Positions 4,691 through 35,492 of a stretch of 64,000 nt of DNA are shown here, piece by piece. Position 1 is the stretch's first letter, and the number at the start of each line of letters is the position of its first letter. A program made the translations under genes and the position numbers. The stretch covers positions 8,124 through 72,123 of the forward strand of contig JBGTCK010000017.1 of assembly GCA_041748855.1 (NCBI GenBank). Reading direction: 5' to 3'. The notes below the pieces were generated by a model. It was given only the letters and a program-made list of their open reading frames with translations, was not told where the DNA came from and ran no database searches. This stretch comes from Acidimicrobiia bacterium (GTDB lineage Bacteria; Actinomycetota; Acidimicrobiia; Spongiisociales; ZC4RG35).

Positions 4691-4747
4691 GGAGCCTGTC
4701 TAGTCAGATGGTGGAGATCCGGTATGACCACCAACTTTTTTTGAGTT

Positions 4748-5556: not shown

Positions 5557-5668
5557 ATCTGCTGCGCTGAAGTGGTCGCTTGGGACCGACCCATCGCGAA
5601 GGCGGTTTAAACGAGCCTTTCTCCCTATGCGGACATATCCCGTCCGCGTTTCGATCTACGCTGCCGCC

Positions 5669-6244: not shown

Positions 6245-6316
6245 TCGAGTGCTCTGCTACTGAGTTAGAGCTGTGGAAGAACGGCCCCTTTCCCGTCAGG
6301 CTGCGATACTTGGCGA

Positions 6317-18140: not shown

Positions 18141-18510
18141 TAATACGCTTGATTAGCTCAGTGCTATTGGCGTGATCTCCTTGATAATACTGCCTTTGAG
18201 TTACTACCTCCCGGCCTGCCCGAAAAAACCGCCGCTGGCCCCGACAGTCGACCTCGACATTCGAACCGGAATCGTCGTCCTCGGCAATGTCCCGTACGGT
18301 GTGGTACGACTACACAAATGGCTCGACACGAGTGCGGCGCTCTCCCCGACGAGGGTGGCATTGCAGGATCTCGGACGGGTAAATGGCGAACTCGAGCGAC
18401 TGCTAGTCAACTCCCAAGCCTCCGCTGCAGCCGCTGCAAGCGCTGGCGTTTGAATGGCCGGTTGTTTGGGTACGCTTGCTCGTTTCGATAGGACGATTCG
18501 GCTGGGAGCT

Positions 18511-19786: not shown

Positions 19787-22354
19787 ATGTTCACCGACAT
19801 AGAGGGGTCGACGCGCCTGCTCGGGTTACTCGGCGACGAGTATGGACAGCTGCTGGCGGATCACCATCGGCTGATCGTCGCTGCCGCAGAGAAGGAACAG
19901 GGTGTACTGGTCGACACCCAGGGCGACGCCTGCTTCATCGTGTTTCCGACCGCCTCCCAGGCAGTCGCAGCGGCGGCTGAAATTCAGCAAGCCCTGTCCA
20001 CCCATGCCTGGCCGGGCGGGGTCGAAGTCAGAGTCCGGGTGGGCCTCCACACGGGTTCCCCGATACAGATGGACGATCGGTACGTGGGGATGGACGTCCA
20101 TCGGGCCGCTCGAATCTCCGCCGCCGCTCACGGTGGCCAGGTGGTCGCCTCGGCGTCTACCGTCCAGCTGTCGGAAGAGGGCCCATCGTGGCTCGCCCTG
20201 GGCGACTTCCGGCTCAAGGATCTCATGCGTCCCGAGCGCCTCTACCAGCTGGTGGCGACGGGGCTGGCCGAACACCACCCGCCGCTGCGGGCGGATCGAT
20301 GGGGGACGGAGCTCCCCGAACCTCCCACACGCTTTGTGGGTCGGGCCACGGCGGTCGAGGAGGTCCTCGAGATGCTGTCTGGGGAGACCAGATTGGTCAC
20401 ACTGGTCGGGCCGGGCGGGATCGGCAAGACCAGATTAGCGGTCCACGTGGGTCGGTTGTGGTCCGACCGCTTCACCGATGGCATCCAGTTCGTCCCCCTC
20501 GCCGCCCTGACCGAACCGGAGGTGATGACTGCCATCGTGGAGGCGTTGGGGGTTACCCAGATCGGGTCCGACGATCCCATGGGTTTGGTAGTCCAGCACC
20601 TGCGCCATCGCCGGATGCTTCTGATCCTCGACAACATGGAACATCTCGTGCCCGCAGCGGGCCGTCTGGTAGCGGACCTGATGCGCGGCTGCCCGGATCT
20701 GCGCATCGTCGCCACCTCACGTGCTCCGGTCGGTGTCTCAGGCGAGCAGCTGATGAGGGTGCCTGCCCTTGCCCTGCCCTCTGAGGATGTCGAACTCGCT
20801 GCCGCCGCCGAGTTCGAAGCGGTTGCCCTGTTCGTGGACAGGGCCCGGACGGTCGACCCGGGTTTCAGATTGACCGACGGCAACCTCGATGCGGTGGTGC
20901 AGATCTGCCGTCGGCTGGACGGACTCCCGCTCGCCCTGGAGTTGGCTGCCGCTCGGACGGCCGTGCTGGCACCAGCCGAACTCCTCGATCGTCTACGCCT
21001 GGATCTCCTGACAAGCAGTTCGACTGACCTCGACGAGCGGCAGCGTACGTTGGCTTCGACCATCGAGTGGAGCTACCGGTTGCTCGACCACTCGCTACAG
21101 CGAGTATTCCGCGAGTTCTCGGTGTTCGCCGGTGGCGCCACGCTGGAGGACACAGGAGCTGTGATCGACCCGGGTGGTGCGACCGATACCCTCGAGGCGG
21201 TCTCGAATCTCGTCGCCAGCAGCCTGCTGTGGCGTGACGAAGATGAAGGAGGGACGTCGCGTTTTCGGATGCTCGAGATCATTAGAGAGTTCGCCCAGCG
21301 CGAGCTCGACCGCTCAGGCGACCTCCCGGCAGTCGCAGACCGGCACGCCGCCAGATTCGCCGAGTTCCTCGAGACGGCCGAAGAGAAGGTGGACGGACCC
21401 GAAGCATCGGAGTGGATGGCGAGGATCGACGCCGAGATGTCGAACACACGGGCCGCCCTCCGCTGGACCTTGGAGGACCCTCGCGGCTCCAGGCTCGCTG
21501 GTGTGAGTATGGCGCAGTCCTTAGGTTGGTTCTGGTACATTCGCGGCCATGCCAGCGAAGGGCTCCGGTGGCTGGAGTCGGCTATCCTGGCCGCAAACGA
21601 TGCGCCCGGACTCCACCGCATCCGAGTCACCTATTACGCCGGCGCCCTGGCTGAAAGGCTGGGACGGTTCCCCGAAGCAGTGCAGCGGTTCCAACAGACT
21701 TTGGTGCTCTGTCGAGAGTTGGGCGACGAGGCGCGCGCAGGGAGAGCGCTCAACTCGCTGGGAGGCATGGCCGTCGAAATGGGAGAGCACGAAGCGGCGA
21801 CGGGATACCTCGCCGAAGCGGAGGAGATCCTACTCTCTCACGACGACAAGTACGGGCTCGGGGCAAACCGGACAAACCAGTGCGACGTGGCCCTCGCTCG
21901 CGGGGAACTCGACCGGGCCCGACAACTGGGCGAGTCGGCGCTCAGCCTGTTCTCAACGTCGGACGACGCATTCGGGGAGGGCGTGGCTTTGCGACACCTC
22001 ACCAAGGTTGCCTACGCCGCTGGGGACCTGGAAGAGGTCCGAAGGCTGCTAAAAGGCGCCCTCACCAAGGGACTCGAGATCGGGAACCTTGCCGACTCAG
22101 CTCGATGCCTGGAACGGCTGGGCGGTGTGGAGATCGCCTTAGGACGCAGCGCCAAGGGGATCCGACTGGGGGCGGCCGCTCAGCGGCTCCGTAGCGAGGT
22201 CGGCGACCATCTGACACCAGACCGGCTGGCCAGCTTCGAACGAAGCTGGTCGCAGGCTCGACTGGTTCTGGGCGAAGAGGAATATCAGACTGCGTGGGAC
22301 CAGGGTTCCAACATGACCTTCGATCAGGCCGTTGCTTACGGCACTGAGAACTGA
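19787..22354 (+). CDS. class III adenylate/guanylate cyclase domain + STAND/AAA NTPase + TPR repeats
   Basis: N-terminal FTDIEGSTRLL cyclase motif; Walker A LVGPGGIGKTRLA; C-terminal TPR-like repeats; 855 aa. Confidence 0.8.
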   Translation: MFTDIEGSTRLLGLLGDEYGQLLADHHRLIVAAAEKEQGVLVDTQGDACFIVFPTASQAVAAAAEIQQALSTHAWPGGVEVRVRVGLHTGSPIQMDDRYVGMDVHRAARISAAAHGGQVVASASTVQLSEEGPSWLALGDFRLKDLMRPERLYQLVATGLAEHHPPLRADRWGTELPEPPTRFVGRATAVEEVLEMLSGETRLVTLVGPGGIGKTRLAVHVGRLWSDRFTDGIQFVPLAALTEPEVMTAIVEALGVTQIGSDDPMGLVVQHLRHRRMLLILDNMEHLVPAAGRLVADLMRGCPDLRIVATSRAPVGVSGEQLMRVPALALPSEDVELAAAAEFEAVALFVDRARTVDPGFRLTDGNLDAVVQICRRLDGLPLALELAAARTAVLAPAELLDRLRLDLLTSSSTDLDERQRTLASTIEWSYRLLDHSLQRVFREFSVFAGGATLEDTGAVIDPGGATDTLEAVSNLVASSLLWRDEDEGGTSRFRMLEIIREFAQRELDRSGDLPAVADRHAARFAEFLETAEEKVDGPEASEWMARIDAEMSNTRAALRWTLEDPRGSRLAGVSMAQSLGWFWYIRGHASEGLRWLESAILAANDAPGLHRIRVTYYAGALAERLGRFPEAVQRFQQTLVLCRELGDEARAGRALNSLGGMAVEMGEHEAATGYLAEAEEILLSHDDKYGLGANRTNQCDVALARGELDRARQLGESALSLFSTSDDAFGEGVALRHLTKVAYAAGDLEEVRRLLKGALTKGLEIGNLADSARCLERLGGVEIALGRSAKGIRLGAAAQRLRSEVGDHLTPDRLASFERSWSQARLVLGEEEYQTAWDQGSNMTFDQAVAYGTEN

Positions 22355-22530: not shown

Positions 22531-22727
22531 GCAGTTTCCCAAGTGTTACCTGATGATTTGAAGCTCAGCGGGTAGGACTCGAACCTACAACCAATGGATA
22601 ACAGTCACGCCGATACCGTCCGTGGTCTCAAGGGGTGTCGATTAGTGCCGTTCTCCACCTTTTCGTCCGTCCGTGTTGGCTGATGCTGTCCCGTGCGGTC
22701 TGGTATGGCTACACAAATGGTACACCC
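22531..22727. repeat. copy 1 of the roughly 250-bp tRNA-Asn-fragment repeat (lacks the left TGGCTACA doublet)
   Basis: Shares the flanks ...tttcccaagtg.tacctga.ga..ttg.agctc and cacgccgataccgtccgtg...gctgatgctgtcccgtgcggtctggtatggctacacaaatgg with copies at 23.6 and 25.9 kb. Confidence 0.7.
22566..22604 (-). pseudogene. tRNA-Asn(GUU) 3' fragment (anticodon loop to acceptor 3' strand), degenerate
   Basis: The reverse complement contains T-stem/loop gtaggTTCGAGTcctac and an anticodon-loop remnant; 1-nt deletion relative to copies 2 and 3; no D-arm or 5' half. Confidence 0.5.
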
Positions 22728-22934
22728 GAAGTGCGATGCGGTCGCCGTGAGCTCAGCGATATTGCCGGATCTGCGTGCCTCCACCCCCGACGCGGTCTTT
22801 ACCGAGTAAGGTCGGGGCGAGCCGCCAAAGCACCAAGATGGCCCAGTCCATGAGTGCTTCCCGGCTGTGTCTGTATCGCCATTGACAAGCAGGGCGTGCG
22901 GCGTCAATCGCACGAAGCCAGAAGGAGACCTTTG

Positions 22935-23531
22935 ATGGCAGATCAAATCGAGGACATCATCGGGGACTATCGGGCATTCGCCGAGCAGCAGCGAGACCGA
23001 CTGGCGACACGCGGCATCGACATCACCCCGTACGGGCTCAGCCATCTCGCATACCGGGTCCCAGAGTGGGACCAGTACGTGCATGTGCGGGGACTCATCG
23101 AACGCCACGCCGTCGCCAATCGCGAGAACGTCTGGAACGGTCGCCCGATCTCCTTGATCGTTCCCGCCGAGCCGCTCGAAGTCCTCGACGGCAAGATCGT
23201 CCCCCTGATCGAGCTCATCCCGCCCGTGCACCAGCGCGTCTACAAGATGGGGTTGGAACACCTCGGCCTCGTAATCGGCGACACTTTCGATGCATTTGTC
23301 AGAGCCCACAAGCCCGTGTTGACGGGACAGCAATTCCAGGGCCCCAACAGCACACCCGACCCCGTATACATCTTGTTCGAGGACTTCACACACGTGAAGT
23401 TCTATCGACTCTCACTGAGGGCATCCGTCGAGCTGGATTCGGGCCCGTTCGACGACGGGTTCCATCACGTCGACGACTGGGTGCCACAACGGCTGGTGAC
23501 GGCGACCGGCCCGAACCCGCTGCCCCGATGA
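22935..23531 (+). CDS. YecM-like (VOC-superfamily) protein
   Basis: ITPYGLSHLAYRV...NGRPISLI...IELIPP...GLEHLGLVI parallels E. coli YecM blocks ITPLTADHISLRC...NGRPICLF...VELPWP...GWEHIEIVL; start at MADQIEDI. Confidence 0.5.
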   Translation: MADQIEDIIGDYRAFAEQQRDRLATRGIDITPYGLSHLAYRVPEWDQYVHVRGLIERHAVANRENVWNGRPISLIVPAEPLEVLDGKIVPLIELIPPVHQRVYKMGLEHLGLVIGDTFDAFVRAHKPVLTGQQFQGPNSTPDPVYILFEDFTHVKFYRLSLRASVELDSGPFDDGFHHVDDWVPQRLVTATGPNPLPR

Positions 23532-23645
23532 CGGATCTCGGCAAAGTGCGAGTGCCCAGGTGAACGCCAACGCCCGACGTTCCGTTTCCTTGACCGCTGT
23601 GCTGGCGGAGTTTCCTGGGCGGCTTGGTCAGCAACGGGAAACTGG

Positions 23646-23897
23646 ATGGCTACAGGTTGGCTACGCACGAACCGTTTGAACGCCAAAGCGAAAGTCGCAT
23701 TTTCCCAAGTGCCTGATGAAATTGAGGCTCCGCGGGTAGGACTCGAACCTACAACCAATGGATTAACAGTCACGCCCACACCGTCCGTGTGGTCTCAGGG
23801 GTGTCGGTTAGTGCCTTTCTGTCTACCTTTTCGTGCCCTACGTGTTGGCTGATGCTGTCCCGTGCGGTCTGGTATGGCTACACATTTGGCTACACCT
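23646..23897. repeat. copy 2 of the tRNA-Asn-fragment repeat (TGGCTACA doublets on both sides)
   Basis: atggctacaggttggctac ... core ... atggctacacatttggctacacc; about 90% identical to the copy at 25.9 kb. Confidence 0.75.
23728..23769 (-). pseudogene. tRNA-Asn(GUU) 3' fragment
   Basis: Minus strand reads CTGTTAA (anticodon loop, GTT) - tccat - tggtt - gtaggTTCGAGTcctac - ccgcgga - g; the 5' half does not pair, so this is not a complete tRNA. Confidence 0.6.
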
Positions 23898-24361
23898 TCC
23901 CACGAGCCTCCAAATCAGATCACCTGACGACCCACGACCTGGATCAAAGCGAACATCGGTGCTACGAGAACCATTGCTGTTGCGATTGTGCGCACGCGGC
24001 CTGGTGATGTCATCTTCACGACGGCTACGGGAATCAAGCCTGCCGCAAGTAACAACGGAACCGAAATAGCTAATCCCCCGGGTCCGGGTTCGGCTGAGAA
24101 CGCCGCTCCGATTGACAAGGCGGCGCTCAGATAGAGTAGGACGAAGTAGCCCCCGACCTTCAGCCACTCGACTTCCCCCCATCTCATCTGGAGATGGTAA
24201 ACGTTTGCCCCACACGGTGAAGCCGTCATACCCGGCGACGCGGTCGGCAATTGGAACCACAGGTGCTCTGCGTCCCTTGATCTCAGCATCGACTGCGTTC
24301 GTGAAAAGGTCACTCCCGTATGACGGTGGATGTGCCGACTTAGGCGCGCAGCCGGTGTGCA

Positions 24362-25117
24362 CTACTGGACTTCTGCTGTTAGCAACCGGTAGGCGGCGCG
24401 GCCTCGGGCAGCAGCCTCTGCCCCGAGAATCTGCCAGGCTGGATTGTCGGGGTCGTCCATCTCAGTCCGTGAGCGCAGACGCTGCCTGTCCTTACGGTCG
24501 AGTGCGGCAGCCACTCCCCCAGGATCATCCATGATGCTGAGCAGAAAGGCGAGGTCGGCTCTTTGGGCGTCGGGTGCATCATCGACTCCGACGGCTTCGG
24601 CCTTAGCAATGATGGCGCCCAGCAGCGATGGTCGAGGAACCAAACCTTCGGCATCACCAACACGCACTGGAACCAACTCGGTTCGAATGAGGGCTTGTGT
24701 GCCGCCTGGCACCTCCAGCGTCCTACCCGGCGGAGTGGTTGTCAGGTCGGCTCGCGGTCCAAGTCCTTCGGGTGCAAGCACGTCCACTGAGACGCCTTCG
24801 CGCTCATAGCGATGCGCCAGGCCGTCCGCCGAGAAACCTACAACTACAAAACCACGCTCCTCGATGGACTCGACAAAACTTCGGATCGCTCCGGTGACAA
24901 CTCGAGCGTCAACGAGCACATCGAGGTCAGTAGACACACGAGGAGGGCTCGCTGCCTGTTCGAGCGCGTGCAGGAAAACCATCTGTCCGCCGACGAGTGT
25001 CCACTCCCCTTTTCGCACTTCGGTCAGTTCGACAAGAGTTTCCCAAAGGTGGCGACTCTGGTCGGGATAGGTGGGCAACTCCACCGGTTCACGATCCAGC
25101 ACCGGCCACTCGGTCAT
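24362..25117 (-). CDS. AbiEii-like nucleotidyltransferase (putative type IV TA toxin)
   Basis: Minimal NTase motif LVGGQMVFLH...STDLDVLVD (hG[GS]...DhD); start at MTEWPV gives an ATGA overlap with the upstream gene. Confidence 0.5.
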   Translation of the reverse strand: MTEWPVLDREPVELPTYPDQSRHLWETLVELTEVRKGEWTLVGGQMVFLHALEQAASPPRVSTDLDVLVDARVVTGAIRSFVESIEERGFVVVGFSADGLAHRYEREGVSVDVLAPEGLGPRADLTTTPPGRTLEVPGGTQALIRTELVPVRVGDAEGLVPRPSLLGAIIAKAEAVGVDDAPDAQRADLAFLLSIMDDPGGVAAALDRKDRQRLRSRTEMDDPDNPAWQILGAEAAARGRAAYRLLTAEVQ

Positions 25118-25788
25118 CTTGCCTCCAGCCTTTCGAGAAGCGCTCTCCCAGCTCTCCTTGATCGCTTGTCCGAGGAGTCGAGGAGATCGATGGCCACGAC
25201 CGGAAGCGGCGCCACCTTTTGGTTGGGGTCGAAAGGCCACACCGCGTCGTCCACCACTCTGATGTAGACGTTTGGCTGGTCGGGGTCCGATTCGAGGGCA
25301 AGACGCCTCACGACACCGTCGACTTCTGAGGCCGCCAAGTACCCCTCAACGACATCTCCGGGAATGAGATCGGCGCGGTGCTCGTCGACAGCACTGGCTC
25401 CTGACCTCACGAAACCCGGTAGACCCGCCAGCCGATCCAACACTGAAGGGTGGGCGTAGAAGCGACGTTCGTCTCCTCGGGCTCGCAGCTTGGCCACGAC
25501 TGACTCCAGACCCTCTTCGAGTCGTCGTCTTGCCCGAAGTAGCTCTACCGCTGATACCTCCGGTTCGTCATCGTTGGCGAGAGCAAGCAGCGCCCAAGCG
25601 GACCTCGAACTCCAAGGTCGGCCCACGTCCTGTTGGCGTCGTTGCGCTTCACGAACCGATCCCCGCTCCACGATCCACGCCCGACCCACTTGTTCCCCAC
25701 GAAGTAGCCCGTCGGCAAGCATCTGGCGAACCCGCCTAGGGCTGACCGCCAGTTCTTCTGCTACTTCAGAAACACTCAGGAGCGACAT
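25114..25788 (-). CDS. AbiEi-like antitoxin (N-terminal wHTH transcriptional regulator)
   Basis: N-terminus MSLLSVSEVAEELAVSPRRVRQMLADGLL (HTH); 224 aa; translationally coupled to the downstream NTase. Confidence 0.5.
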   Translation of the reverse strand: MSLLSVSEVAEELAVSPRRVRQMLADGLLRGEQVGRAWIVERGSVREAQRRQQDVGRPWSSRSAWALLALANDDEPEVSAVELLRARRRLEEGLESVVAKLRARGDERRFYAHPSVLDRLAGLPGFVRSGASAVDEHRADLIPGDVVEGYLAASEVDGVVRRLALESDPDQPNVYIRVVDDAVWPFDPNQKVAPLPVVAIDLLDSSDKRSRRAGRALLERLEAR

Positions 25789-25890
25789 GATTTCATAATC
25801 CTACCGATATCGGTAGTATTATGTCAACACATCTGTTTAGCGGAGGGACCCCGGGAGATCGTCGAACAACAACACCATTTCGGAGAGCGG

Positions 25891-26147
25891 ATGGCTACAG
25901 GTTGGCTACACCCGAACCATTCGTACACAGGGGCGCATGTCGCATTTTTCCAAGTGCTACCTGAAGAAATTGGAGCTCCGCGGGTAGGACTCGAACCTAC
26001 AACCAATGGATTAACAGTCACGCCGATACCGTCCGTGTGGTCTCAACGGGTGTCGATTAGTGCCGTTCTGTCTACCTTTTCGGTCCGTGCGTGTTGGCTG
26101 ATGCTGTCCCGTGCGGTCTGGTATGGCTACACAAATGGCTACACCTG
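25891..26147. repeat. copy 3 of the tRNA-Asn-fragment repeat (TGGCTACA doublets on both sides)
   Basis: atggctacaggttggctacacc ... core ... atggctacacaaatggctacacctgcc. Confidence 0.75.
25976..26017 (-). pseudogene. tRNA-Asn(GUU) 3' fragment
   Basis: Identical in architecture to the fragment at 23728-23769. Confidence 0.6.
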
Positions 26148-26477
26148 CCCGAATGACCTAATTGCCACTCAGCGGTCGGCTGCTTGCATCCGCGACCACG
26201 ATACGTCAAGGAAATGGGGTGACGCGGCGCTCGCGATTCGGTCGAGTTCGGGTCGTCGCTGAGCTCGAGCTGGTGGTCACCGCCCCACCCCTCCGTCGCG
26301 ACCAGATTCCAATCTTGGGCGGGTCACATTGGGTCGTCGGAGGCTGAGCCGTCACGACGCGCGAGCCTCCACGAATGCACACCACGACCTATCTTCAGTT
26401 CGAGGTCCCGCGACCGATAATGGCCATGGTGAGTTCATGAAGCGAGGTCCGCAATCGACATCGTTCGTCTAATCCGA

Positions 26478-27563
26478 ATGACCGAGAAAGGAAGCAAGAC
26501 AGCGCTCTGGGCTGGGGTTGTGCTCCCTTCGCTCTTCCTGTTGTTCCCGCTTCTGCTCGGCTTGGCCACGATTGCGTTGTTGGTCGAAGCGGTATCGGGA
26601 GACGGTGAATGGGAGAAAGTCGGTGGCGCAGTGCTTTCCTTCGGCTTAGTCGCGTGGTTCATTGGAGCACCAGCTACGGAGGTCATTGGACAGGTCAGGC
26701 GGGAACGTACCCGCGACAAGGTGATGATCGACCGTCTTGGGTTAATCCTGCGAGCACACAGTGAACTCGATCAGGCAGAGGAACATCAAGATGGAGAGGC
26801 GGATGCTGAGAACGAGGACCCCGACGCTACATGGAGTACCGGGAGACGCGAGTTCGAAGAACCCGCCCTGGAGATCGACCCACCGGTCAGCCACCTCCTC
26901 GATCCAGAATCCGCTGGCGAGTCAGTAGCCTTTGAGCCGCAAGGCTCGGACGCGGCAGCTCCCGATGCCCTTTCGCCCTCGGCTGATACAGATGGCGGAC
27001 CTCGTCGACTAGACGAGAACGCCCAGGGCGAGTACGAGGTGTATCTCCTTGAGCGGTTGGCAGATGGGAGAGACTTTTTCTACTACCTTGACACGGCCAT
27101 CCAATTCGGGCTCAGATACCCCGGTAGGAGGTTTCATCACAGGTGGCCAGCCGCCTCAAATGCAGCGCTAACTAAGTACATCTCGAATCGTGATGACCTA
27201 GCCACCCCACAAGCGGCACAGGTGCTACGGGAGGTATACAGAGAGATTCAACCGCCAGAACTCGACACTGACCTTCAGGACTGGATCACGTCTGACGAAC
27301 CAGTCGACTCCCTCCTCCACGAAGTGGTTGTGACGACCGTGGGCGTCTTAGTGCGTAGAACGGGCGAACTAGACGATCTTGAACGCAAGAGGCAGGTGAT
27401 TTCCACTCGCGAGTTGGTTGCGGTGTCTCTGCTATCTGATGGCGACCCCAGGACCGAAGAAGTCGTCCACCGACTGGATGCCCACTACGAGGCTAGGCAC
27501 CTTAAAGATGAGCAGTACAACGAATTGAGAAGCTATGCCTTGAACCCTCGACCCTTTGGATAG
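26478..27563 (+). CDS. membrane protein: two N-terminal TM helices plus a large acidic cytoplasmic domain
   Basis: Hydrophobic stretches LWAGVVLPSLFLLFPLLLGLATIALLV and AVLSFGLVAWFIGA, followed by a D/E-rich region; no recognisable family. Confidence 0.45.
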   Translation: MTEKGSKTALWAGVVLPSLFLLFPLLLGLATIALLVEAVSGDGEWEKVGGAVLSFGLVAWFIGAPATEVIGQVRRERTRDKVMIDRLGLILRAHSELDQAEEHQDGEADAENEDPDATWSTGRREFEEPALEIDPPVSHLLDPESAGESVAFEPQGSDAAAPDALSPSADTDGGPRRLDENAQGEYEVYLLERLADGRDFFYYLDTAIQFGLRYPGRRFHHRWPAASNAALTKYISNRDDLATPQAAQVLREVYREIQPPELDTDLQDWITSDEPVDSLLHEVVVTTVGVLVRRTGELDDLERKRQVISTRELVAVSLLSDGDPRTEEVVHRLDAHYEARHLKDEQYNELRSYALNPRPFG

Positions 27564-27695
27564 GCGCACGCACACCGCCATGTATAAGGGGGGGTTCCCT
27601 CCACGGCCACCCTGAACGAGCGGTCGAGCGAGACTAGGTGCGTATGCGCTCTCGGCAAACGACTCTTTGCCGTAGTACGGGCCTACCCAATGGGC

Positions 27696-28223
27696 CTACC
27701 CAATGACGGGTGATCCGCCAGCTAACCCTTTGAGCCCATCGGGATATCTCTGGATCGATGCCGCCAGGTTCGCCGCCACAACGGGGTCGGCCTCATTCGC
27801 GTTGAGCCAGACACGCGCGGAGGTTGTCAGGTCTCTGCAGAACCACCGGACGTCAATGTTGATGACGTCCCCCATGACGTTGAGGTGAAACACGTTCGAA
27901 GAGTTGCCTGGTTCGTAGAAGACGACTCGTGAGTAACCACCCGGATGGCCGCCCGTCCTGGCCTGGTGAAGAAGCGAGCACCGAAACCCATATGCGGCTC
28001 CACCAGAGAAGAACGGCTCGTCCATGCGCGGAAGCTTGTGGCCATAGATGTCCGGCATGTTCTCGTCGAACCAGGCGGCATAGCGCTCTCCTGTCGCCAC
28101 GCCCGACTCGTGTCCGAGAGCGCCGAAGATGTCAGGAATGGCGAGGGCCGACACAAGCGCGACGTAGTAGTGGCCCCCATCGAGGGCGCCGTCTACCTGA
28201 TCGAGAAAATCACGCATGGTCAC
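27696..28223 (-). CDS. hypothetical protein
   Basis: 175-aa ORF, divergent from 28372..29208; coding-like composition; no family recognised. Confidence 0.4.
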   Translation of the reverse strand: MTMRDFLDQVDGALDGGHYYVALVSALAIPDIFGALGHESGVATGERYAAWFDENMPDIYGHKLPRMDEPFFSGGAAYGFRCSLLHQARTGGHPGGYSRVVFYEPGNSSNVFHLNVMGDVINIDVRWFCRDLTTSARVWLNANEADPVVAANLAASIQRYPDGLKGLAGGSPVIG

Positions 28224-28371
28224 TCGTCAGCCAAGTTATATCGAGGTCGACCGTATCGTGAGCGCCACCAAAGCACGCATTCGGCACATATCGGCGCCGG
28301 GGGTAGGCGCTCAGCCGGTCAGGTGGACAAGACGCGTGTGATCCGGAGTCTGTCGGTGGTATCTCGTAACA

Positions 28372-29208
28372 TTGGGCCCCATGGGGACGATAAATCGTCA
28401 TGACGCCCGTTCTCTCCCTGATGATGAGCGGTTAGCGAGAGAGGTGGTCGCGCCCCACATTGACTCGATCTTAGTGGCCCTCCCGGAACCGGGTAACGAA
28501 CCCACCCCCGACTTCGAGATGTGTCGGGACGGAAAGCGCGTCGGATGGCTGGAGGTAACCACCGGGACCGACCAAGCGTCGCAAACACTCAACGCTCAGC
28601 TCGAGGAGGCGGGTCGTAGGCGGCGGACTACCCGCCGTCTCCGGTGCGACTGGTTTCTACAGTTGACACCCGATTCCAATCTCCGAACACTGAACGAAGA
28701 GCGACTTTTCGACGCCCTCGCGTTAAGGGAGCCAACTTTGACTCCCTACCCAACCGCGATGATGGACCCGATCAGCATCCCTGAGTCTGACGCCATCCTC
28801 GCCAAATTCCACGTCGCCCGCGCTAATCCGTTGAACGCATCAGACGGCGACGAAGCCACGGTGCTCCTCGACATCAGCGGACAGATGAATAGGGTCGATG
28901 CGGACACGATCAATCGGCTCGCAGAACAACGGTGCGATGCCAAGCGCCCGCAGCTCGAAGGTCGACAGGGTGAGCGTCACCTCTTTGTCCGGGTCGATAA
29001 GTGGGAGCGGAGCGGAGCAGGCGTAGCAATGCACGGATTCGGTGACAACGAACCCCCGGTGCCCTACGAGGGTCCCACCTTCCCTGAGTGGGTTAGCGAC
29101 GTTTGGTTGCTGAACACCGTCGGGCAACCGAAACTCTGGCATTGCTCCCAGGCGACCGAGGCATGGAAGATCTACGACATCGATCCGGCGGTATTCAAGA
29201 GCGGGTAG
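28372..29208 (+). CDS. hypothetical protein
   Basis: 278-aa ORF; no family recognised. Confidence 0.4.
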   Translation: MGPMGTINRHDARSLPDDERLAREVVAPHIDSILVALPEPGNEPTPDFEMCRDGKRVGWLEVTTGTDQASQTLNAQLEEAGRRRRTTRRLRCDWFLQLTPDSNLRTLNEERLFDALALREPTLTPYPTAMMDPISIPESDAILAKFHVARANPLNASDGDEATVLLDISGQMNRVDADTINRLAEQRCDAKRPQLEGRQGERHLFVRVDKWERSGAGVAMHGFGDNEPPVPYEGPTFPEWVSDVWLLNTVGQPKLWHCSQATEAWKIYDIDPAVFKSG

Positions 29209-29479
29209 CCCAGATGCCACCCGACTGGCAATCCGTAGCGAGTAGAAGAACCCCCCGGCTCACCCGACCTCACTGAGATGCTTGGACGGCGTATCGGAGG
29301 GTTCTCTGCGTCCAGGGAATCGTTTGTGAATGTGACACCGCGGACGGACGGAACCCTACACGCCTGCAGAGGTGGGGGGTAACTCTGAAATCCCCTGCCC
29401 ATCCCTGCCCGTACCTGTAATCACCATGGAGATTCGGCATCCTGACCCGCATCGACTCGCTTCGTTCGCCGCACGGCTT

Positions 29480-29520
29480 AGTACCGACATCTCGGAACTG
29501 AGTACCGACATCTCGGAACT
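29480..29520. repeat. tandem duplication of a 21-bp unit (agtaccgacatctcggaactg)
   Basis: Two adjacent near-identical copies read directly from the sequence. Confidence 0.8.
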
Positions 29521-29907
29521 AACGCTTGACAATGGCGTGACGTATTCGGTGGCCCACATCGGCATGTATGTGGTGCAGTCGCTCACTTTCATCGCCCGAT
29601 GGGCTTGCATTTCGACAGGAAAAGAATCTGCCAGGGTGAAGGATTGACCGATTGAGATTTTTTAATCAATGATTCTCGCCGAGAGCTACGAGGATGATCC
29701 AGATTGGCAAAGGCGTCCTATTAGGTAGGTAGGAGAATCGGGTGCCTCTGGCCCCGTATTGCGTCGGCCCTAGAGGACCGGGAGACCGGTGCCCAGGCGA
29801 ACTCTGCGATGAGGGGAAGGAAGCAGGCTGGCATGAACAAGTCCGCTGCACGCAGTTGTACTTGAATTCGTACACCTGAGTACCTAGATTCGTACCTAGG
29901 AGGCGTG

Positions 29908-31773
29908 TCATGGCGTGTCGTTTTTGGAAGCTGTTGCCTGTTGTTGGGAGGATTTGTCAGGTTCTGGATCACAACCCAGGTAGCCGTCGGGGCATCGGGG
30001 CCGATGAGGACAGGGGTCGAGTTCTGGTGGAGGGGCGACCCCGCCGTCTTCTCCGGTTTGCGTCCTAAAACCGGGGTCCCATCCCAGGCTCTCTCGTTGC
30101 CTGACGGCGGCTCCGTAGGTTCCGTACTCCCGAGCCAGGCGATCGAGATCCTCTACGTTTTGGATTGTGGCGACGATTCCATGTTCAGTCTCAGCGACGA
30201 GGTCACCTTCGATCAGTTTCCTGACGTGTCTTCCGACCGTGGCTGGACTGACTCCCATCTCCGTAGCAATCGCCCTCCGCGACGGCTGTGCACCTATCAT
30301 CAGAAGCTCAAGTATCCGCCACCCGTTCTTTCCAATGCCGTAGTGGTATGAGTATCGGTGCCAGTTCGTAATGTATTTGCCTCGGACGGGGCCTCTAAAG
30401 AGGTCGTGTCCGATTGGGAGCTGGGGGTGTTGCAATACCTGAACGACTCCCCCATCCAAAGTAGGTGTGGACTCGTTCAGATCTTGCAATGCTGTTTGAG
30501 GTATCTGCAGTCTCCACCTGCTGGGTCGTTGTATCGAGTCACCCTTAAATAGAAGTTGGACCCATCCCCTGTGTTGCAACTCCTTTAGAGCTGTCATGAC
30601 AGTTTCGCTGCTTGAATAGCCGGCTTCCTGTTTGATACCCCTTACTCCTTTGGCGAAGTTGCTGGGTCCACCGGTACGCATTGCGATGCGGATAAGTGCT
30701 TCGAGGACTGTGATTTGTCGTTTTCCGGAGTGTCCTGACCACTTGAGGCTGTGTGCGACCACGCGGAGCTCGGTCAGATACTCCATCGCTTCTTCTCGGT
30801 TGTTGAAGGGGCTTTTCGATGGGCGAGGGTTCTGCGATCCTCTTTTCAGGCCACTGCGGATGGTGGGTTCTGCTTCAGTCCAGCTAAGTCCACACAAGGA
30901 AGCAGCCTCCTCGAGGTAGTGCCAGAAGATGTCTTCGTCTAGCCCGCCCTTTCCAACCAGTTCCCCGAGGGCACAAGAGGAGACAAAGAGCTGCTGGTTC
31001 CGCGTTCCCCTTTTTGCAGTCGCTGTCTTCTCGTACTCCCCTGCCACCGCAGCCCATACATATGGAGTGACTCCTTGAGGGGCGGGGAGGGCCTGCAGGT
31101 CGGCCACTAGGCCCTCGGTGAGCGCTGAGGGAAGTTCGGGGATCCTTCGATCAATATTTGTGGTCCACTCATAGACCGACCCGCTGACGTGGCGGCTTGG
31201 AGGCGCCGCAACATACCCGCCCCTCCCCCTCACGTCGATACCGGGAAAGCCATCGAGCACCGGCAGCGAGTTCCCGACTCGCCAGCCGTCAGCTCGAAAG
31301 TAGAGGTGGCGGCCACCTCCACCTGTCTGAACTTCGGCGGTCTCCGGCCAGGTGCCATAGGTCTCGACAAAGTGTCGCTCTGAGTCGTCGGACCCATGGC
31401 GCGGATCGAAGTCGAGGACGACCAATTCTCCAGTTGCTATCGCGAGATTGGAGTTCGGCGATCCCTTGAACACCTGGCGCATCAAGTATGCGTTGGAACT
31501 GGCGGCCTTACGCCATCCTCTCCGCCGGGGGTGTTTCCCCGGGCTCTCGCACTTGGAACCTCTCGGACACTCACATATCAAAGCTCCGTCGCTTTGGACG
31601 ACGCCGAACAGCATCACCATTCGCATGCTGAGGCGCGAGTACTGGTCAATCGCTGCGATGGTGGAAGTCAGATGATTGTCGTCGGGTGGCTTGCTCGTTT
31701 CACTCATAGCTCGAACAGTGCACCAAGCGGCGCGTATACTCCAGTAGACGAGCGTTACTTGACCGTGACGCAT
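29908..31773 (-). CDS. bifunctional DNA primase/polymerase (Prim-Pol) replication protein with C-terminal wHTH
   Basis: Prim-Pol N-terminal domain (LFGVVQSDGALICECPRGSKCESPGKHPRRRGW...DVRGRGGYVAAPPS); C-terminal MarR-like RRAIATEMGVSPATVGRHVRKL; gene GC content is visibly lower than the surroundings. Confidence 0.75.
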   Translation of the reverse strand: MRHGQVTLVYWSIRAAWCTVRAMSETSKPPDDNHLTSTIAAIDQYSRLSMRMVMLFGVVQSDGALICECPRGSKCESPGKHPRRRGWRKAASSNAYLMRQVFKGSPNSNLAIATGELVVLDFDPRHGSDDSERHFVETYGTWPETAEVQTGGGGRHLYFRADGWRVGNSLPVLDGFPGIDVRGRGGYVAAPPSRHVSGSVYEWTTNIDRRIPELPSALTEGLVADLQALPAPQGVTPYVWAAVAGEYEKTATAKRGTRNQQLFVSSCALGELVGKGGLDEDIFWHYLEEAASLCGLSWTEAEPTIRSGLKRGSQNPRPSKSPFNNREEAMEYLTELRVVAHSLKWSGHSGKRQITVLEALIRIAMRTGGPSNFAKGVRGIKQEAGYSSSETVMTALKELQHRGWVQLLFKGDSIQRPSRWRLQIPQTALQDLNESTPTLDGGVVQVLQHPQLPIGHDLFRGPVRGKYITNWHRYSYHYGIGKNGWRILELLMIGAQPSRRAIATEMGVSPATVGRHVRKLIEGDLVAETEHGIVATIQNVEDLDRLAREYGTYGAAVRQRESLGWDPGFRTQTGEDGGVAPPPELDPCPHRPRCPDGYLGCDPEPDKSSQQQATASKNDTP

Positions 31774-31900
31774 TGCGCGGGAACAATTTTTCGTCTTGGG
31801 GACCCGCCTTGATCAGAGTGAACCCTGTCCCCGAGAACGGTGCGGGGTCGACGAGGTTTGAAAACAATGAACGCAAACGAGCGTGATATGAAAGGCCCCC

Positions 31901-32800
31901 ATGGACCCGTTCTTGAGCCGAATCATCGGACTTGTTGCAACGCCGGTGCCGGTGAACGCCACGTCATACCAACTCCCCACCGAGGTGAAACTTGAGGAGA
32001 CCCTCGACGGCTGGGTGCTCGCCTGGCGTCGCGGCGGTCGGCGGAAGCAAGTCGGCGCCAGCAACGAACAATTGCTAGCCGAGTTCATGTCTCTGCAGGA
32101 CTCCGAGCCGGACCAAATCGCCGAGTTCGCATCTGAGTGGGGAGCCCTGCAACTCTGTAAACACGGCAAACCCCAGTCTCATTTACCTTGGCGTCTTTGG
32201 ACCGAACTCGACGAATTAGAAGCTGCACCCTGCGATGTGAACCGGGCCTATCCCGGAGGATGGAGACGCGAACCAATCTCTCGGTGGAATCACTATTCGT
32301 CGCAGGCAGGAGCCATCCGTCGCCTGGGGCGCAACCTAAGCTCCGGGAACTCGATCTCAATTGTGGATCTCGAACCCATGGAAGATCTATTTCCGCCCTA
32401 CTTCCTCGACCGGACAATTCCCGGAATTAGCGAACCGATCTCCGAGCCACCTGAATTCACCCGGCAGGATCATGAGAGGGTCCTGGCGACCGCTCTCCAC
32501 AGTTGGTTAGGTATGGGCGATGTCGGTTTCCATGTGAATTGGCGAGAGGGCAAGAGCTCAGTTCAATTCGGTGGTACCGGACTGTTCGGAGCTCTAGCCC
32601 TCCAACTGACACTCGTCTGCACCGGTGCCGGCGCGCTCTTCTTGTGTTCCGAATGCAGACTGCCCTACATCCCCGAACAGCAACCTCGCTCAGGTGAAAG
32701 GAACTACTGCCTCGACTGCCGCGATAAAGGCATACCTGCGAGAAACCGCCAGCGTGCACTACGCGCCCGACTTCGCGCTGAACGAAAATCTGAGATGTAA
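31901..32800 (+). CDS. hypothetical protein with C-terminal Cys4 zinc ribbon
   Basis: CSECRLPY...NYCLDCRDKG; divergent from the prim-pol gene. Confidence 0.4.
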   Translation: MDPFLSRIIGLVATPVPVNATSYQLPTEVKLEETLDGWVLAWRRGGRRKQVGASNEQLLAEFMSLQDSEPDQIAEFASEWGALQLCKHGKPQSHLPWRLWTELDELEAAPCDVNRAYPGGWRREPISRWNHYSSQAGAIRRLGRNLSSGNSISIVDLEPMEDLFPPYFLDRTIPGISEPISEPPEFTRQDHERVLATALHSWLGMGDVGFHVNWREGKSSVQFGGTGLFGALALQLTLVCTGAGALFLCSECRLPYIPEQQPRSGERNYCLDCRDKGIPARNRQRALRARLRAERKSEM

Positions 32801-32954
32801 CGCTCAAGTCACGGTCAACACCTGGACTTCTGCGCTTCGGTTGGCCACAGTGACCTCGGAAGGCGTAACACAGAGACGAGGAAAATTGAGCAACCGAACT
32901 ACAGGAGCGACGATCCCGCCGGAAACCGAGGATGTGCCGCTAGATCCAGACACG

Positions 32955-33188
32955 ATGCTGGCCGACTGGCTTCGGCATACCAGTGCACTAACCGTGCCAG
33001 TCTCCGCAGCAGCGGAGATCCTCGGAATCGGACGCACCACCGCGTATGAGTCAGCAAAGAGGGGTGAGATCCCATCGCTGCGACTAGGACGGCGGCTGGT
33101 GGTGCCCGTCGAGGGGCTCCGCGCGATGCTCGGTGTCCGGTTCGTTGGCCAGGGTGAGGTCGTCCCCAACCCAGAGCTGGGAGATTAA
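32955..33188 (+). CDS. xis: excisionase/Xis-like HTH DNA-binding protein
   Basis: LTVPVSAAAEILGIGRTTAYESAKRGEIPSLRLGRRLVVP is the canonical MerR-type excisionase HTH; start chosen at MLADW. Confidence 0.6.
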   Translation: MLADWLRHTSALTVPVSAAAEILGIGRTTAYESAKRGEIPSLRLGRRLVVPVEGLRAMLGVRFVGQGEVVPNPELGD

Positions 33189-33346
33189 AAAATGTCGCCA
33201 GCGAAAGACATCGTTTCGCGACCAATGGACTGGCTGTCACACGTTCCGTCAACCACTACCAGCAGAAACTGGGGATGTGTAGCCGGATGTGTAGCCATAG
33301 CCCGCCAAATCCGGCTCACGCAGTCCTCTCCGACCCAAGATGATCG

Positions 33347-34090
33347 GTGTCGGTCGTGACGGTGGACCAGGGACCAGCACGCCGTTCCGCGGAAGTAACG
33401 GACACGGCCACCCGCCTGAGCTTCGGTCCTCGTCTCTGTCGGGTTGAGGCCACCATTGTGGGCCCCAGGATGAAGCCGACGCCCCCGGGTTCTTCTGCAA
33501 TCCTGCGCTGGGCAAGGTATGCAGACGACTGGGAGACGCACCGAAGCCTCCCACTTGAACTAACCACCGGCGAACTCGGGGGCATCCTCCATGAGATCGA
33601 CGCCCAACTGACGCATGATCGCACACTCCTATCAGAGGAACAAGAGCACGAGCCTGAATGGCTTTCCGGCGGTTGGTATGACCTACTCGGTTTGGTTCAA
33701 GAAGTCCAGAGCCTGGTCGTGACAGCAAAGGAGTCGGAAGGTCAACTTGTTCCGATCTCCGTCGTGGTGCTTCCCTGGGACGACCCACTACTTCTCCCCG
33801 ATGACGGACCACAGAGCGAAGGTATCTGCGAGCAGACCGCCGATGACAGCGGATTCACCGTCAAGCTAAGTGAGTTCGCAACACCGTTCACGGTGATCCA
33901 TGCGTTTGCTCACATCCTGAACCCAGGAGACTCACAGCGGTTCGCCCACGACCGCGATTGGTTCTTCTGCTTCCTTGCCCTGGCGCTGAGGCGGTATGAG
34001 GGAGTCGAAATCAGCGGCTTGTTGGCTTCCCGAGATCCTGCTCGCCTTGTCCGCGCCCTCGAACGCCTGCCCGTCAACCGGTTCGGTTGA
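33347..34090 (+). CDS. hypothetical protein
   Basis: 247-aa ORF between xis and int. Confidence 0.35.
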   Translation: MSVVTVDQGPARRSAEVTDTATRLSFGPRLCRVEATIVGPRMKPTPPGSSAILRWARYADDWETHRSLPLELTTGELGGILHEIDAQLTHDRTLLSEEQEHEPEWLSGGWYDLLGLVQEVQSLVVTAKESEGQLVPISVVVLPWDDPLLLPDDGPQSEGICEQTADDSGFTVKLSEFATPFTVIHAFAHILNPGDSQRFAHDRDWFFCFLALALRRYEGVEISGLLASRDPARLVRALERLPVNRFG

Positions 34091-34322
34091 CCACGCCCAT
34101 GTCACGTGTACGTCCTCTCGACATGTCCAACATTTTGCAAAGAGCTCACCTCCGCGACCGCGGCCTAGCTAAGCCGAATAGCCGTCCTCTGATATCCAAC
34201 TTGAGGGAACCAGCGGGGAGCCTGTCACACGTCAGCCCAGCCGTTGCTGGCAGAAGCCGGGACCGTAGGGCCCGATCCTGTGAAGTCCTGCTCTCGAAGA
34301 TCCGTCGGACCCGGCATGATCG

Positions 34323-35492
34323 GTGCCGAGCATGACGGTATACAAACGATCCGGAGCGAAGTCTTGGTCCGTCCTAGTGGAATTCGGACGCGGCGCTGGC
34401 CACCGTCGTCGCGTTTATGAAGGAGGCTTCCGCACCAAACGTGAGGCGCTTGCGAGGGAAGTCGCGATCAAGGGAGACATGGCGAACGGCAGCTGGGTTG
34501 ACCTCTCAAACACGACCGTCGGCGACTACATGAAGAGCTGGCTTCATCAGCACGGCCACAACCTCAAGCCGACCACGGTCCAGTCCTATTCGGCAAACCT
34601 GAGGAATCATGTACTCCCCCAGCTCGGCCACATCCAACTCCAAGAACTCACCGCTGCACACCTTAACGACTTCTATGCCACGCTCCTCACCCAAGGACGA
34701 GTCAAGACCGGGTCTGACAAGGGCGGACCCCTGTCACCAACCACAGTCCGCTACATCGCCACCATCGTTGGAAAGAGCCTCCAAGACGCCCTCGAATCGG
34801 GTCTCGTTATCCGCAACGTCGCAGTCGCCGCACGCAAACCGCGCACGAGTCGAGAGGCGAACCAGAAAGTAAAGACCTGGTCCGGGCCTGAAGTGGCACG
34901 GTTCCTCGAATCCACATCCGAGGACCGACTTCACCCACTTTGGGTGCTCTACGCGACAACAGGACTCCGCCGGGGAGAAGCGCTAGGACTCCGATGGGAA
35001 GATATCGACCTCTCCCGCGGCCAGGCTTCCATACGCCACAACCTCGTAGTCGTGCGAGGCGGCCTCGAGTTCGGATCTCCGAAAAGTGGACGAGGCAGGC
35101 ACATCTCCTTGGCAACACAAACTGTCAACGCCCTCAGAGCATGGCGAGCTACTCAGGTAGCCGAAAAGCTGGCAATCGGCGCCGTATGGGCGGACCCACT
35201 AGGCCTTGTGTTTACACGCGAGGACGGATCGCCCATTCACCCAGACCGAGTCACCGACGCCTTCCGACGCAGCCAGAAGACCACTGAACTCCCAAAGATC
35301 ACGCTGCACCAGTTACGCCACACGTGGGCAACACTCGCCCTCCAAGCAGGCGTTCAGCCCAAGATCGTGAGTGAAAACCTGGGGCACTCTTCAATTCGCA
35401 TCACCATGGACATTTACAGCCATGTCTTACCCACAATGACATCTGACGCCGTCGCAAGGGTGGCCGATGCAATCTATGGGCAAGATTTATGA
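34323..35492 (+). CDS. int: tyrosine-type site-specific integrase
   Basis: N-terminal SAM-like domain; C-terminal catalytic LRHTWATLALQAGV...LGHSSIRITMDIYSHV (R..HxxR..Y). Confidence 0.9.
   Translation: MPSMTVYKRSGAKSWSVLVEFGRGAGHRRRVYEGGFRTKREALAREVAIKGDMANGSWVDLSNTTVGDYMKSWLHQHGHNLKPTTVQSYSANLRNHVLPQLGHIQLQELTAAHLNDFYATLLTQGRVKTGSDKGGPLSPTTVRYIATIVGKSLQDALESGLVIRNVAVAARKPRTSREANQKVKTWSGPEVARFLESTSEDRLHPLWVLYATTGLRRGEALGLRWEDIDLSRGQASIRHNLVVVRGGLEFGSPKSGRGRHISLATQTVNALRAWRATQVAEKLAIGAVWADPLGLVFTREDGSPIHPDRVTDAFRRSQKTTELPKITLHQLRHTWATLALQAGVQPKIVSENLGHSSIRITMDIYSHVLPTMTSDAVARVADAIYGQDL

Follow-up and report, generated by a model that had tools for sequence, protein, structure and literature searches.

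The question raised by this locus is what a pair of overlapping minus-strand genes, enclosed by two long direct repeats, contributes to the genome or to the element that carries it. The locus belongs to a stretch of 64,000 nucleotides (nt) of contig JBGTCK010000017.1 from an Acidimicrobiia bacterium (assembly GCA_041748855.1), hereafter the window, and the genes are denoted A (upstream) and B (downstream; Table 1). In a preliminary description, made from the sequence alone, the pair was considered an AbiEi/AbiEii-like module carried as cargo between attP-like repeats. The underlying observation, two overlapping minus-strand genes between direct repeats, is confirmed as real. The reading favored here, with moderate confidence, is that the pair is an AbiE/MenAT-like toxin-antitoxin module from a divergent, unannotated actinobacterial subfamily of DUF1814.

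The nature of B can be gleaned from its conserved residues and its predicted fold. Both motifs that had been quoted for B are present, LVGGQMVFLH with G43 and G44, and STDLDVLVD with S62, D64 and D66. The AlphaFold2 (AF2) model of the protein (predicted local distance difference test, pLDDT, 86; predicted template modeling score, pTM, 0.88) consists of the alpha-beta-alpha-beta-alpha-beta core that is typical of nucleotidyltransferases (NTases) of the polymerase beta (pol-beta) type, followed by a helical C-terminal domain. In this model, G43-G44 map to the beta1/alpha2 junction, D64 and D66 to beta2, D112 to a later strand, and K172 and D188, which are 16 residues apart, to the C-terminal helices. 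The top PDB fold matches retrieved with Foldseek are all NTases, namely, TM1012, CCA-adding enzymes, viral poly(A) polymerases and CD-NTases, with the best structural match being TM1012, an uncharacterised small NTase.

Conservation was counted over 75 divergent members of the B family, with identity down to 32%. The residues W25, G43, D64, D112, K172 and D188 are found in all 75, D66 in 73 and R60 in 67; G44 is retained in 59 members and is otherwise replaced by Ala, and position 62 is always occupied by either Thr (46 members) or Ser (29). Thus, the hG[GS] and R..DhD motifs, a third acidic residue and the NTase fold are all in place, and the pol-beta signature that had been pointed out in the downstream protein consists of residues that are invariant or nearly so. 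The residues that are mutationally essential in Streptococcus agalactiae AbiEii, G49/G50, R63, D67, D69, K173 and D192 (PMC3985639), correspond, with nearly the same numbering, to G43/G44, R60, D64, D66, K172 and D188 of B. Likewise, the auto-phosphorylation sites T39 of MenT1 and S78 of MenT3 (PMC11375011) occupy the same place as position 62 of B, two residues before the first catalytic Asp.

An exhaustive profile search (E<=1e-3) delineated a B family of 1806 cluster representatives at 50% identity. At least 778 relatives of B were identified among the scored candidates, with the named organisms being mostly metagenome-assembled genomes (MAGs) of Acidimicrobiia, and among the 120 relatives listed, all source names are ‘hypothetical protein’. 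The link to DUF1814 emerges at the level of the family. The broad family profile (A3) matches MenT1 (8AN4) among the PDB sequences with E 9.4e-5, in an alignment that spans the catalytic core, WxLVGG...R-x-T-x-D-x-D...D-h-L; only this broader profile reached MenT1, whereas the profile of the close family (A1) yielded nothing meaningful against the PDB. The AbiEii family of Pfam (PF08843) is matched by 12 of the 75 divergent members (E<=0.1, best 6.8e-6), and a few members touch NTP_transf_8 and NTP_transf_5. A homolog encoded on the Tsukamurella plasmid pTpau01, which is 31% identical to B (pairwise E 1e-21), carries the RefSeq name ‘nucleotidyl transferase AbiEii/AbiGii toxin family protein’ and scores just above the PF08843 cutoff (22.7 bits against 22.5). 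From the motif residues, the MenT1 profile match, the 12 PF08843 matches and the plasmid homolog, we conclude, on the basis of sequence comparison, that B most likely belongs to the DUF1814 (AbiEii/MenT) superfamily of NTases as a divergent branch, one that is missed by current models.

The ‘minimal’ NTase of the preliminary description does not hold up. Minimal nucleotidyltransferase (MNT) domains, which are covered by Pfam NTP_transf_2, consist of about 100-150 amino acids (aa) and are paired with a HEPN protein. In contrast, B is a 251-aa protein without an NTP_transf_2 match, possesses a helical C-terminal domain with the DUF1814-type Lys and Asp, and has a helix-turn-helix (HTH) protein as its partner.

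That partner, A, consists of an N-terminal winged HTH of the excisionase/MerR type (aa 3-52), a short linker predicted with low confidence (aa 52-55) and a C-terminal domain of the alpha/beta type (aa ~60-223) that is well predicted in the AF2 model (pLDDT 89.7). The HTH domain matches Pfam HTH_17 with 29.6 bits (cutoff 27), in agreement with the N-terminal winged HTH recognized previously, and remains below the cutoff for the excisionase model TIGR01764 (27.0 bits against 28.8). Over about 50 residues, this domain is 39-40% identical to the Xis protein of mycobacteriophage Pukovnik (4j2n; Foldseek probability 1.0), which is also matched by the profile of the A family (E 3.5e-5), and A matches PHROG excisionase families as well. 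At least 206 homologs of A were found. Across Pfam, NCBIfam, PADLOC, PHROGs and the PDB sequences, the matches of A above the cutoff are confined to the HTH level. When the whole two-domain model is used as the Foldseek query, the global matches are poor, probably, because of differing domain orientation. As for the AbiEi type of winged HTH, AbiEi_4 is weakly touched by only 2 of 32 and 4 of 30 relatives. For the C-terminal domain, weak similarity to AbiEi_2 is detectable in 8 of 30 relatives (best E 4.2e-4), so that homology of this domain to AbiEi is plausible. Overall, A displays the two-domain layout of AbiEi-type antitoxins but with a different class of HTH.

The two genes behave as one unit. 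Loci with a relative of B were collected using the close-family profile A1, which yielded 80, mostly from Acidimicrobiia, along with some from Nocardioides and Marmoricola and one from a Bifidobacterium MAG. In 79 of the 80 loci, a relative of A is located immediately upstream of B on the same strand, and in 73 of these 79, the two coding regions overlap by 4 nt (NTGA). In the window, the plus strand reads ‘tcat’ at the overlap, that is, the ATG of B shares four bases with the TGA of A; the ATGA coupling that had been noticed at position 25117 is thus both read directly from the sequence and recurrent across the family. The abiEi and abiEii genes of S. agalactiae show the same 4-nt overlap. 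A longer, 292-aa open reading frame (ORF) for B, with a GTG start at 25240, was rejected given that the homologs start at the overlapping ATG or GTG.

The region upstream of A is conserved as well. In 54 of 77 loci, the 60 nt preceding A contain the palindromic pattern WWCCG-N4-CGGWW, for which the background expectation is 0.027 per equivalent stretch; the distance between the pattern and the inferred A start is the same in 47 of these 54 loci. In the window, the pattern takes the form TACCG-N4-CGGTA, as the core of a near-perfect palindrome, and sits within the spacer and the -10 element of the predicted promoter. The predicted -10 element ends 9 nt before the ATG of A, which implies a near-leaderless transcript. 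Nucleotide similarity to the two closest relatives of the locus, L083 and L084, begins at the -35 hexamer (25828/25827) and ends within about 12 nt of the B stop codon (24374 and 24354); beyond these limits, the flanks differ. The flank in L083 contains a tRNA-Asn att repeat followed by the same YecM-like gene as in the window (85% nucleotide identity). In place of the att repeat, L084, where the closest relative of B is encoded (82% identity), has a convergent HEPN_Apea gene (1594-2457) after the pair, which hints at a defense-type neighborhood. Judging from the pairing, the overlap, the palindrome and the limits of similarity to L083 and L084, the conserved unit, as delineated by sequence comparison, comprises the promoter/operator, A and B, about 1.47 kb altogether.

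The gene structure, fold, residue conservation, gene pairing, overlap, palindrome and repeat architecture are direct results of the analysis. By analogy with characterized relatives, from which toxicity, target, neutralization, repression and excision are extrapolated (PMC3985639; PMC11375011; bioRxiv 10.64898/2026.01.19.700257), the module could operate as follows. A single promoter (25827-25798) would produce the near-leaderless A-B transcript, with B translated through coupling at the ATGA overlap. A dimer of A would bind TACCG-N4-CGGTA inside the promoter via the excisionase-type winged HTH and thus repress the operon, whereas the C-terminal domain of A would neutralize B, perhaps, by causing B to phosphorylate itself at S62, which precedes D64 by two positions, as in the analogous MenA/AbiEi case. 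In free B, the residues G43/G44, D64, D66 and D112, the likely ligands of metal and nucleoside triphosphate, together with K172 and D188, would catalyze nucleotide transfer onto RNA; tRNA 3' ends are the most likely target, in which case translation would be arrested. A tyrosine integrase acting in trans could excise and re-insert the 2.25-kb cassette that contains the pair, in the manner of a cis-mobilisable element (CIME), and the module would stabilize this cassette and may additionally provide phage defense.

Several results weigh against this interpretation. In direct searches, B has no family match in Pfam (E<=1), NCBIfam or PADLOC and no meaningful match among the PDB sequences, so that the window protein itself falls below the PF08843 gathering score; nothing was found in PHROGs either. 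None of the PDB fold matches of B is better than E 7e-3, and none reaches E 1e-3, nor are there any MenT or AbiEii chains among the top 50 of these Foldseek matches. The MenT1 match of the family profile is limited to the N-terminal core, with the MenT3, MenT4 and AbiEii chains in the PDB remaining unmatched. The literal ‘+DxxD’ pentad of motif IV is absent from the B family, where the consensus of the respective region is R-H-x-x-D-L-A-F-L-L, with D188 as the only invariant residue. On the side of A, the similarity of the C-terminal domain to AbiEi_2 (PF09952; aa 98-220) is below the cutoff (15.1 bits against 21, E 0.029), the S. agalactiae AbiEi structure 6y8q comes third in the fold search but only with E 0.12 and probability 0.3, the HTH is of the Xis/MerR rather than the AbiEi type, and in PADLOC-DB v2, no AbiE model is matched at E<=1, the only match being to mad1, at the HTH level. 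Furthermore, phages hardly encode any members of the B family, the only match being a weak one, and an association with defense islands is not established.

The AbiE assignment thus comes with caveats. The search against AbiE models that the preliminary description had proposed is negative for both window proteins. The antitoxin part of the claim stands insofar as a two-domain winged HTH protein is encoded upstream, and fails with respect to the type of the HTH, with AbiEi_2 being the only AbiE-family model approached, below its cutoff; the AbiEii part stands at the family level, through the MenT1 profile match, the PF08843 matches and the pTpau01 homolog, and fails for B of the window, which has no direct family match. 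Put differently, membership as defined by hidden Markov models (HMMs) for AbiEii, AbiEi and PADLOC AbiE is negative, whereas the agreement at the levels of residues, operon and profile is positive, and the earlier interpretation is supported in the sense that the pair works like these systems.

The foremost alternative, although an unlikely one, is that the pair has nothing to do with toxicity, with B being a small-molecule or antibiotic NTase, similar to aminoglycoside nucleotidyltransferases (ANT-like), or a housekeeping RNA-modifying NTase, and A being its transcription factor. Such a role would fit with TM1012 being the best structural match of B, with the few family members that touch NTP_transf_8 and NTP_transf_5, and with the accessory metabolic or resistance-like genes in the neighboring cassettes of similar arrays. 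However, Lys172, Asp188 and the Ser/Thr two positions before the first catalytic Asp are signatures of DUF1814 toxins, the only sequence match in the PDB is the toxin MenT1, and several traits of B are typical of toxin-antitoxin modules, namely, the overlap by 4 nt with the gene of a two-domain HTH protein, the presence in multiple copies and on plasmids, and the location in tiny mobile islets.

The genomic context bears on how the putative toxin-antitoxin module spreads. Repeat copies 2 and 3, which enclose the pair, are direct repeats of about 280 nt that are 79-94% identical by block and 2248-2249 bp apart. The 30-nt repeat core occurs three times in the window, compared with 0.00 occurrences expected by chance, and each repeat, on the minus strand, contains ...GACTGTTAATCCATTGGTTGTAGGTTCGAGTCCTACCCGCGGAG. 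No tRNA was detected in the window with ARAGORN or Rfam, even at E<=10 over the repeats. A 39-nt piece of the core is present in at least 120 metagenomic stretches, and its 87 matches in 80 retrieved contigs include 53 inside intact tRNA-Asn(GTT) genes and 34 displaced fragments; because the intact tRNA genes carry the same core, it can be identified as a true 3' half of tRNA-Asn(GTT). The displaced fragments share an upstream arm of about 170-215 nt that is 73-83% identical to the repeats in the window, and a downstream arm is also common to copies 2 and 3. Owing to this combination of the tRNA-Asn 3'-half core, the shared upstream arm with GTGTAGCC motifs and the shared downstream arm, the two copies look like attP-type junctions (P-core-P') within a tandem array of tRNA-Asn-targeting elements.

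The array in the window consists of a single-gene YecM-like cassette, the A-B cassette of 2.25 kb, and an element of about 8 kb that encodes a PrimPol-HTH protein and a tyrosine integrase. The A-B cassette contains A, B and a doubtful ORF, with no recombinase gene inside, and shows the features of a CIME, that is, direct repeats derived from the target and P/P' arms. A distance of 8.5 kb separates the pair from the closest integrase gene in the window (34323-35492), whose product is a candidate helper recombinase acting in trans. No intact tRNA-Asn or empty site for the array was found in the window or in the fetched contigs. The window thus holds three copies of the tRNA-Asn 3' half and an integrase, yet no intact tRNA, and the anchor of the array was not found within it. 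The pair had been placed exactly between repeat copies 2 and 3; it does lie between them, but about 445 bp (23917-24361) separate B from copy 2. The C-terminal part of the 132/174-aa ORF in this segment resembles 2-3 transmembrane helices. This ORF has no family match, no tblastn counterpart in the 80 related loci and is absent in L083 and L084; not being conserved in the related loci, it was rejected as a member of the module and may be either spurious or a recent insertion.

The character of the pair as a discrete repeat-flanked cargo unit, which had been suggested from this one locus, is recapitulated elsewhere. Of 70 loci, 10-11 have significant direct repeats close to the pair on both sides, compared with 0 of 70 in a mismatched-flank control, and there are none at the remaining 59 loci. 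In about ten other genomes, these units span 1.7-2.3 kb, occupy different tRNA or gene-end sites and have the A-B pair as the sole cargo (Table 1), with no tyrosine-integrase-like sequence within 6 kb of the repeat-flanked islets. In the two islets inspected, both arms carry their own repeated motifs, TGAGAAC..TGAGAAC in L068 and GTGTCGCTTGTCAT..GTGTCATCA in L005, an architecture of lambda-type att sites that argues for mobilization by a cognate integrase in trans, as in a CIME; because of these arm motifs, an in-trans integrase is favored over recombination by A or B. Among the 80 loci, a tRNA gene is located within 6 kb in 25, with many identities of the tRNA, and a similar integrase within the same distance in only about 12. 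In five loci from Ilumatobacteraceae MAGs (L026, L053, L054, L056 and L059; ~3945-6740), tRNA-Arg(CCT) is followed by a tyrosine integrase gene, A and B, with no downstream repeat of the tRNA-Arg end within 6 kb. The B family is also represented on plasmids of Rhodococcus, Arthrobacter, Tsukamurella and Bifidobacterium, and some genomes carry two family copies.

These contexts invite explanations in terms of mobility itself. One of these, which has a rather small chance of being correct, is that A is a recombination directionality factor (RDF) that directs a helper integrase, whereas B is an accessory protein and not a toxin. The resemblance of the N-terminal domain of A to Pukovnik Xis (39-40%), the matches to PHROG excisionases and TIGR01764, the gene order tRNA-Arg, integrase, A, B in several loci, and the pair being the sole cargo of many att-flanked islets all point in this direction. 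However, RDFs are small single-domain proteins, typically, a Xis next to the integrase, whereas A, although its HTH is of a fitting type, is a 224-aa protein with a conserved second domain of 170 aa; its candidate binding site is the palindrome in its own promoter and not the att arms; similar integrases accompany only the minority of the loci given above; HTH_17 is common in ordinary regulators, such as BldC; and it would be left unexplained why A is so strictly coupled to an NTase whose catalytic residues are invariant. A further reading that seems improbable to a similar extent is that A doubles as an antitoxin/autorepressor and a directionality factor that recruits a helper integrase, so that the promoter-A-B unit would be selfish and repeatedly the sole passenger of integrase-less attP mini-cassettes at many tRNA and gene-end sites. 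Should A indeed have such a dual role, a toxin-antitoxin pair would parasitize the integration machinery of other elements, with its cassettes residing in integron-like arrays in Acidimicrobiia.

The remaining possibility, that the pair is its own recombinase, with B as a new NTase-fold recombinase and A as the DNA-binding specificity subunit, is very improbable: about ten islets of 1.7-2.3 kb at different att sites do hold only A and B, with no tyrosine-integrase-like gene within 6 kb, but their direct repeats consist of the 3' ends of either tRNA or protein genes, the arm-type motifs differ between islets (TGAGAAC, GTGTCATCA, GTGTAGCC), which is a hallmark of lambda-type tyrosine integrases and the ground on which B was rejected as the recombinase, a matching integrase is present in the same array in the window, 59 of 70 loci lack flanking repeats, and we know of no recombinase with the NTase fold of B.

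Table 1. Features of the window discussed in the text, and repeat-flanked A-B units at other loci.
Feature	Position	Strand	Details
Gene A	25114..25788	-	224 aa, MSLLSVSEVAEELAVSPRRVRQML...; putative antitoxin and autorepressor
Gene B	24362..25117	-	251 aa, MTEWPV...; pol-beta-fold nucleotidyltransferase, putative toxin
ATGA overlap of B start codon with A stop codon	25114..25117	-	read from sequence
Palindrome	25794..25823	.	30 nt, near-perfect, core TACCGATATCGGTA at 25802-25815; putative operator for A; 14/15 arm pairs match
Promoter-like site	25798..25827	-	-35 TTGACA, 18-nt spacer, -10 TAGGAT; consensus scan, 10/12 matches
Extra segment between B stop and repeat copy 2	23917..24361	-	~445 bp; doubtful 132/174-aa membrane-like ORF
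Repeat copy 3, attP-like	25882..26165	-	P arm with GTGTAGCC..GTGTAGCC, tRNA-Asn(GTT) 3' half (core ~25975-26014), P' arm
Repeat copy 2, attP-like	23637..23916	-	tRNA-Asn 3'-half core ~23727-23766
Repeat copy 1	22558..22750	-	shorter; closes neighboring single-gene YecM-like cassette
YecM-like (PF06185) protein	22854-23531	+	single gene between repeat copies 1 and 2
Tyrosine integrase of adjacent element	34323..35492	+	Pfam Phage_integrase E 6e-25; SAM-like and arm-binding domains
A-B unit, L068			repeat 54 nt of tRNA-Pro; unit 1983 bp
A-B unit, L005			repeat 22 nt of tRNA-Leu; unit 2227 bp
A-B unit, L037			repeat 41 nt; unit 1773 bp
A-B unit, L039			repeat 60 nt; unit 1715 bp
A-B unit, L029			repeat 73 nt; unit 2286 bp
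A-B unit, L001			repeat 77 nt; unit 1842 bp
A-B unit, L044			repeat 163 nt, 3' end of protein gene; unit 2051 bp
A-B unit, L047			repeat 103 nt, 3' end of protein gene; unit 2042 bp

The surroundings of the cassette are themselves rich in features of mobile elements. The adjacent element (26478-35492) encodes a protein with PrimPol and winged HTH domains (29908-31773, minus strand), a homolog of phrog_18591 (27696-28223, minus strand) and several ORFs without a family match. Further GTGTAGCC-type double motifs are located at 18308-18327 (minus strand), 33277-33296 (plus strand, inverted relative to the repeats) and 39042-39061 (minus strand). Just outside repeat copy 1, an 855-aa ORF (19787-22354, plus strand) appears, on inspection by eye, to start with an adenylate/guanylate-cyclase-like region that is followed by ATPase and TPR-like regions. 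Integron-like tandem arrays were also found elsewhere (L094, L127, L131, L132, L136, L149, L153 and L158), with cassettes of 1.2-7 kb. The separators in such arrays are conserved attP-like units of about 200-280 nt, consisting of a P arm with GTGTAGCC repeats and a tRNA-Asn 3' half, and are common in metagenomes. The cargo of the arrays includes a phosphoenolpyruvate (PEP)-utilizing, rifampin-phosphotransferase-like enzyme with a TetR regulator, a sigma factor, a luciferase-like monooxygenase, an AAA-LuxR regulator and DUF4386. A unit of about 2.5 kb in L131 (4076-6610) combines an intact tRNA-Asn, a tyrosine integrase and a displaced tRNA-Asn fragment; with the integrase as its only substantial gene, this unit appears to be a mirror image of the integrase-less cassettes.

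If the pair is indeed a toxin-antitoxin module, the consequences are primarily those for annotation. The models in Pfam, NCBIfam and PADLOC reach only a minority of the B family, with its approximately 1,800 clusters, which amounts to a blind spot in the annotation of toxin-antitoxin and defense systems. With this family recognized, the range of the DUF1814 toxin superfamily would come to include Acidimicrobiia and related Actinomycetota, and a new antitoxin architecture would be added in which an excisionase-type HTH is fused to an AbiEi_2-like domain and accompanied by a precisely positioned operator. The cassettes would also provide a clean case, found in nature, of att-flanked units without an integrase that carry nothing but a toxin-antitoxin pair, which bears on the spread of such modules and on the persistence of small genomic islets. 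What is new, then, is an unannotated DUF1814 subfamily, its antitoxin with an excisionase-type HTH, the operator at a fixed position and the recurrence as the sole cargo; no new principle is involved.

Among the known systems, the closest parallel is AbiE of S. agalactiae and Lactococcus, a Type IV (recently proposed Type VII) system composed of a DUF1814 NTase toxin and a two-domain winged HTH antitoxin. In both cases, the operon is bicistronic, with the regulator upstream, the antitoxin combines an N-terminal winged HTH with a C-terminal domain, and there are inverted repeats in the promoter; the toxins share hG[GS], R-x-[ST]-x-D-h-D, a third acidic residue and the C-terminal Lys and Asp. 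AbiE is found on mobile elements and can stabilize them (PMC3985639). Unlike AbiE, the window proteins score below all AbiE HMM thresholds, the HTH of A is of the excisionase/MerR type, there is no +DxxD pentad, B is shorter by about 40 aa, and the distribution of A-B is actinobacterial, mainly in Acidimicrobiia.

The MenAT systems of Mycobacterium tuberculosis, in which the NTase toxins MenT1-4 extend tRNA acceptor stems and the MenA antitoxins induce auto-phosphorylation, come from the same phylum, Actinomycetota, and include the only solved protein matched by the B family profile, MenT1 (8AN4). However, the similarity of MenT1 to B is limited to the N-terminal core, and MenT1 is a 196-aa protein whose partner, MenA1, is small, unrelated and not autoregulating, whereas A is a 224-aa HTH protein. 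The COG4861-COG4849 pairs constitute the second DUF1814 branch (Dy et al. 2014), and among the AbiE-family models, only AbiEi_2 (PF09952) is approached by the C-terminal domain of A, although with a sub-threshold score, 15.1 bits compared with 21. As for A, its domain layout is that of an AbiEi-type antitoxin, and PF09952 may correspond to the COG4861 branch.

With regard to mobility, CIMEs have been described in accretions of integrative and conjugative elements (ICEs) in Firmicutes, and both these and integron-style cassettes resemble the A-B cassette in being short integrase-less units of one or two genes with a recombination site and direct att repeats on both sides, in forming tandem arrays next to an element that encodes an integrase, and in presumably depending on a recombinase in trans for movement. 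What sets the window apart is its sites, which belong to the lambda-type tRNA att class rather than to attC and have P and P' arms spanning about 200-280 nt; moreover, the mobility of the A-B cassette is putative.

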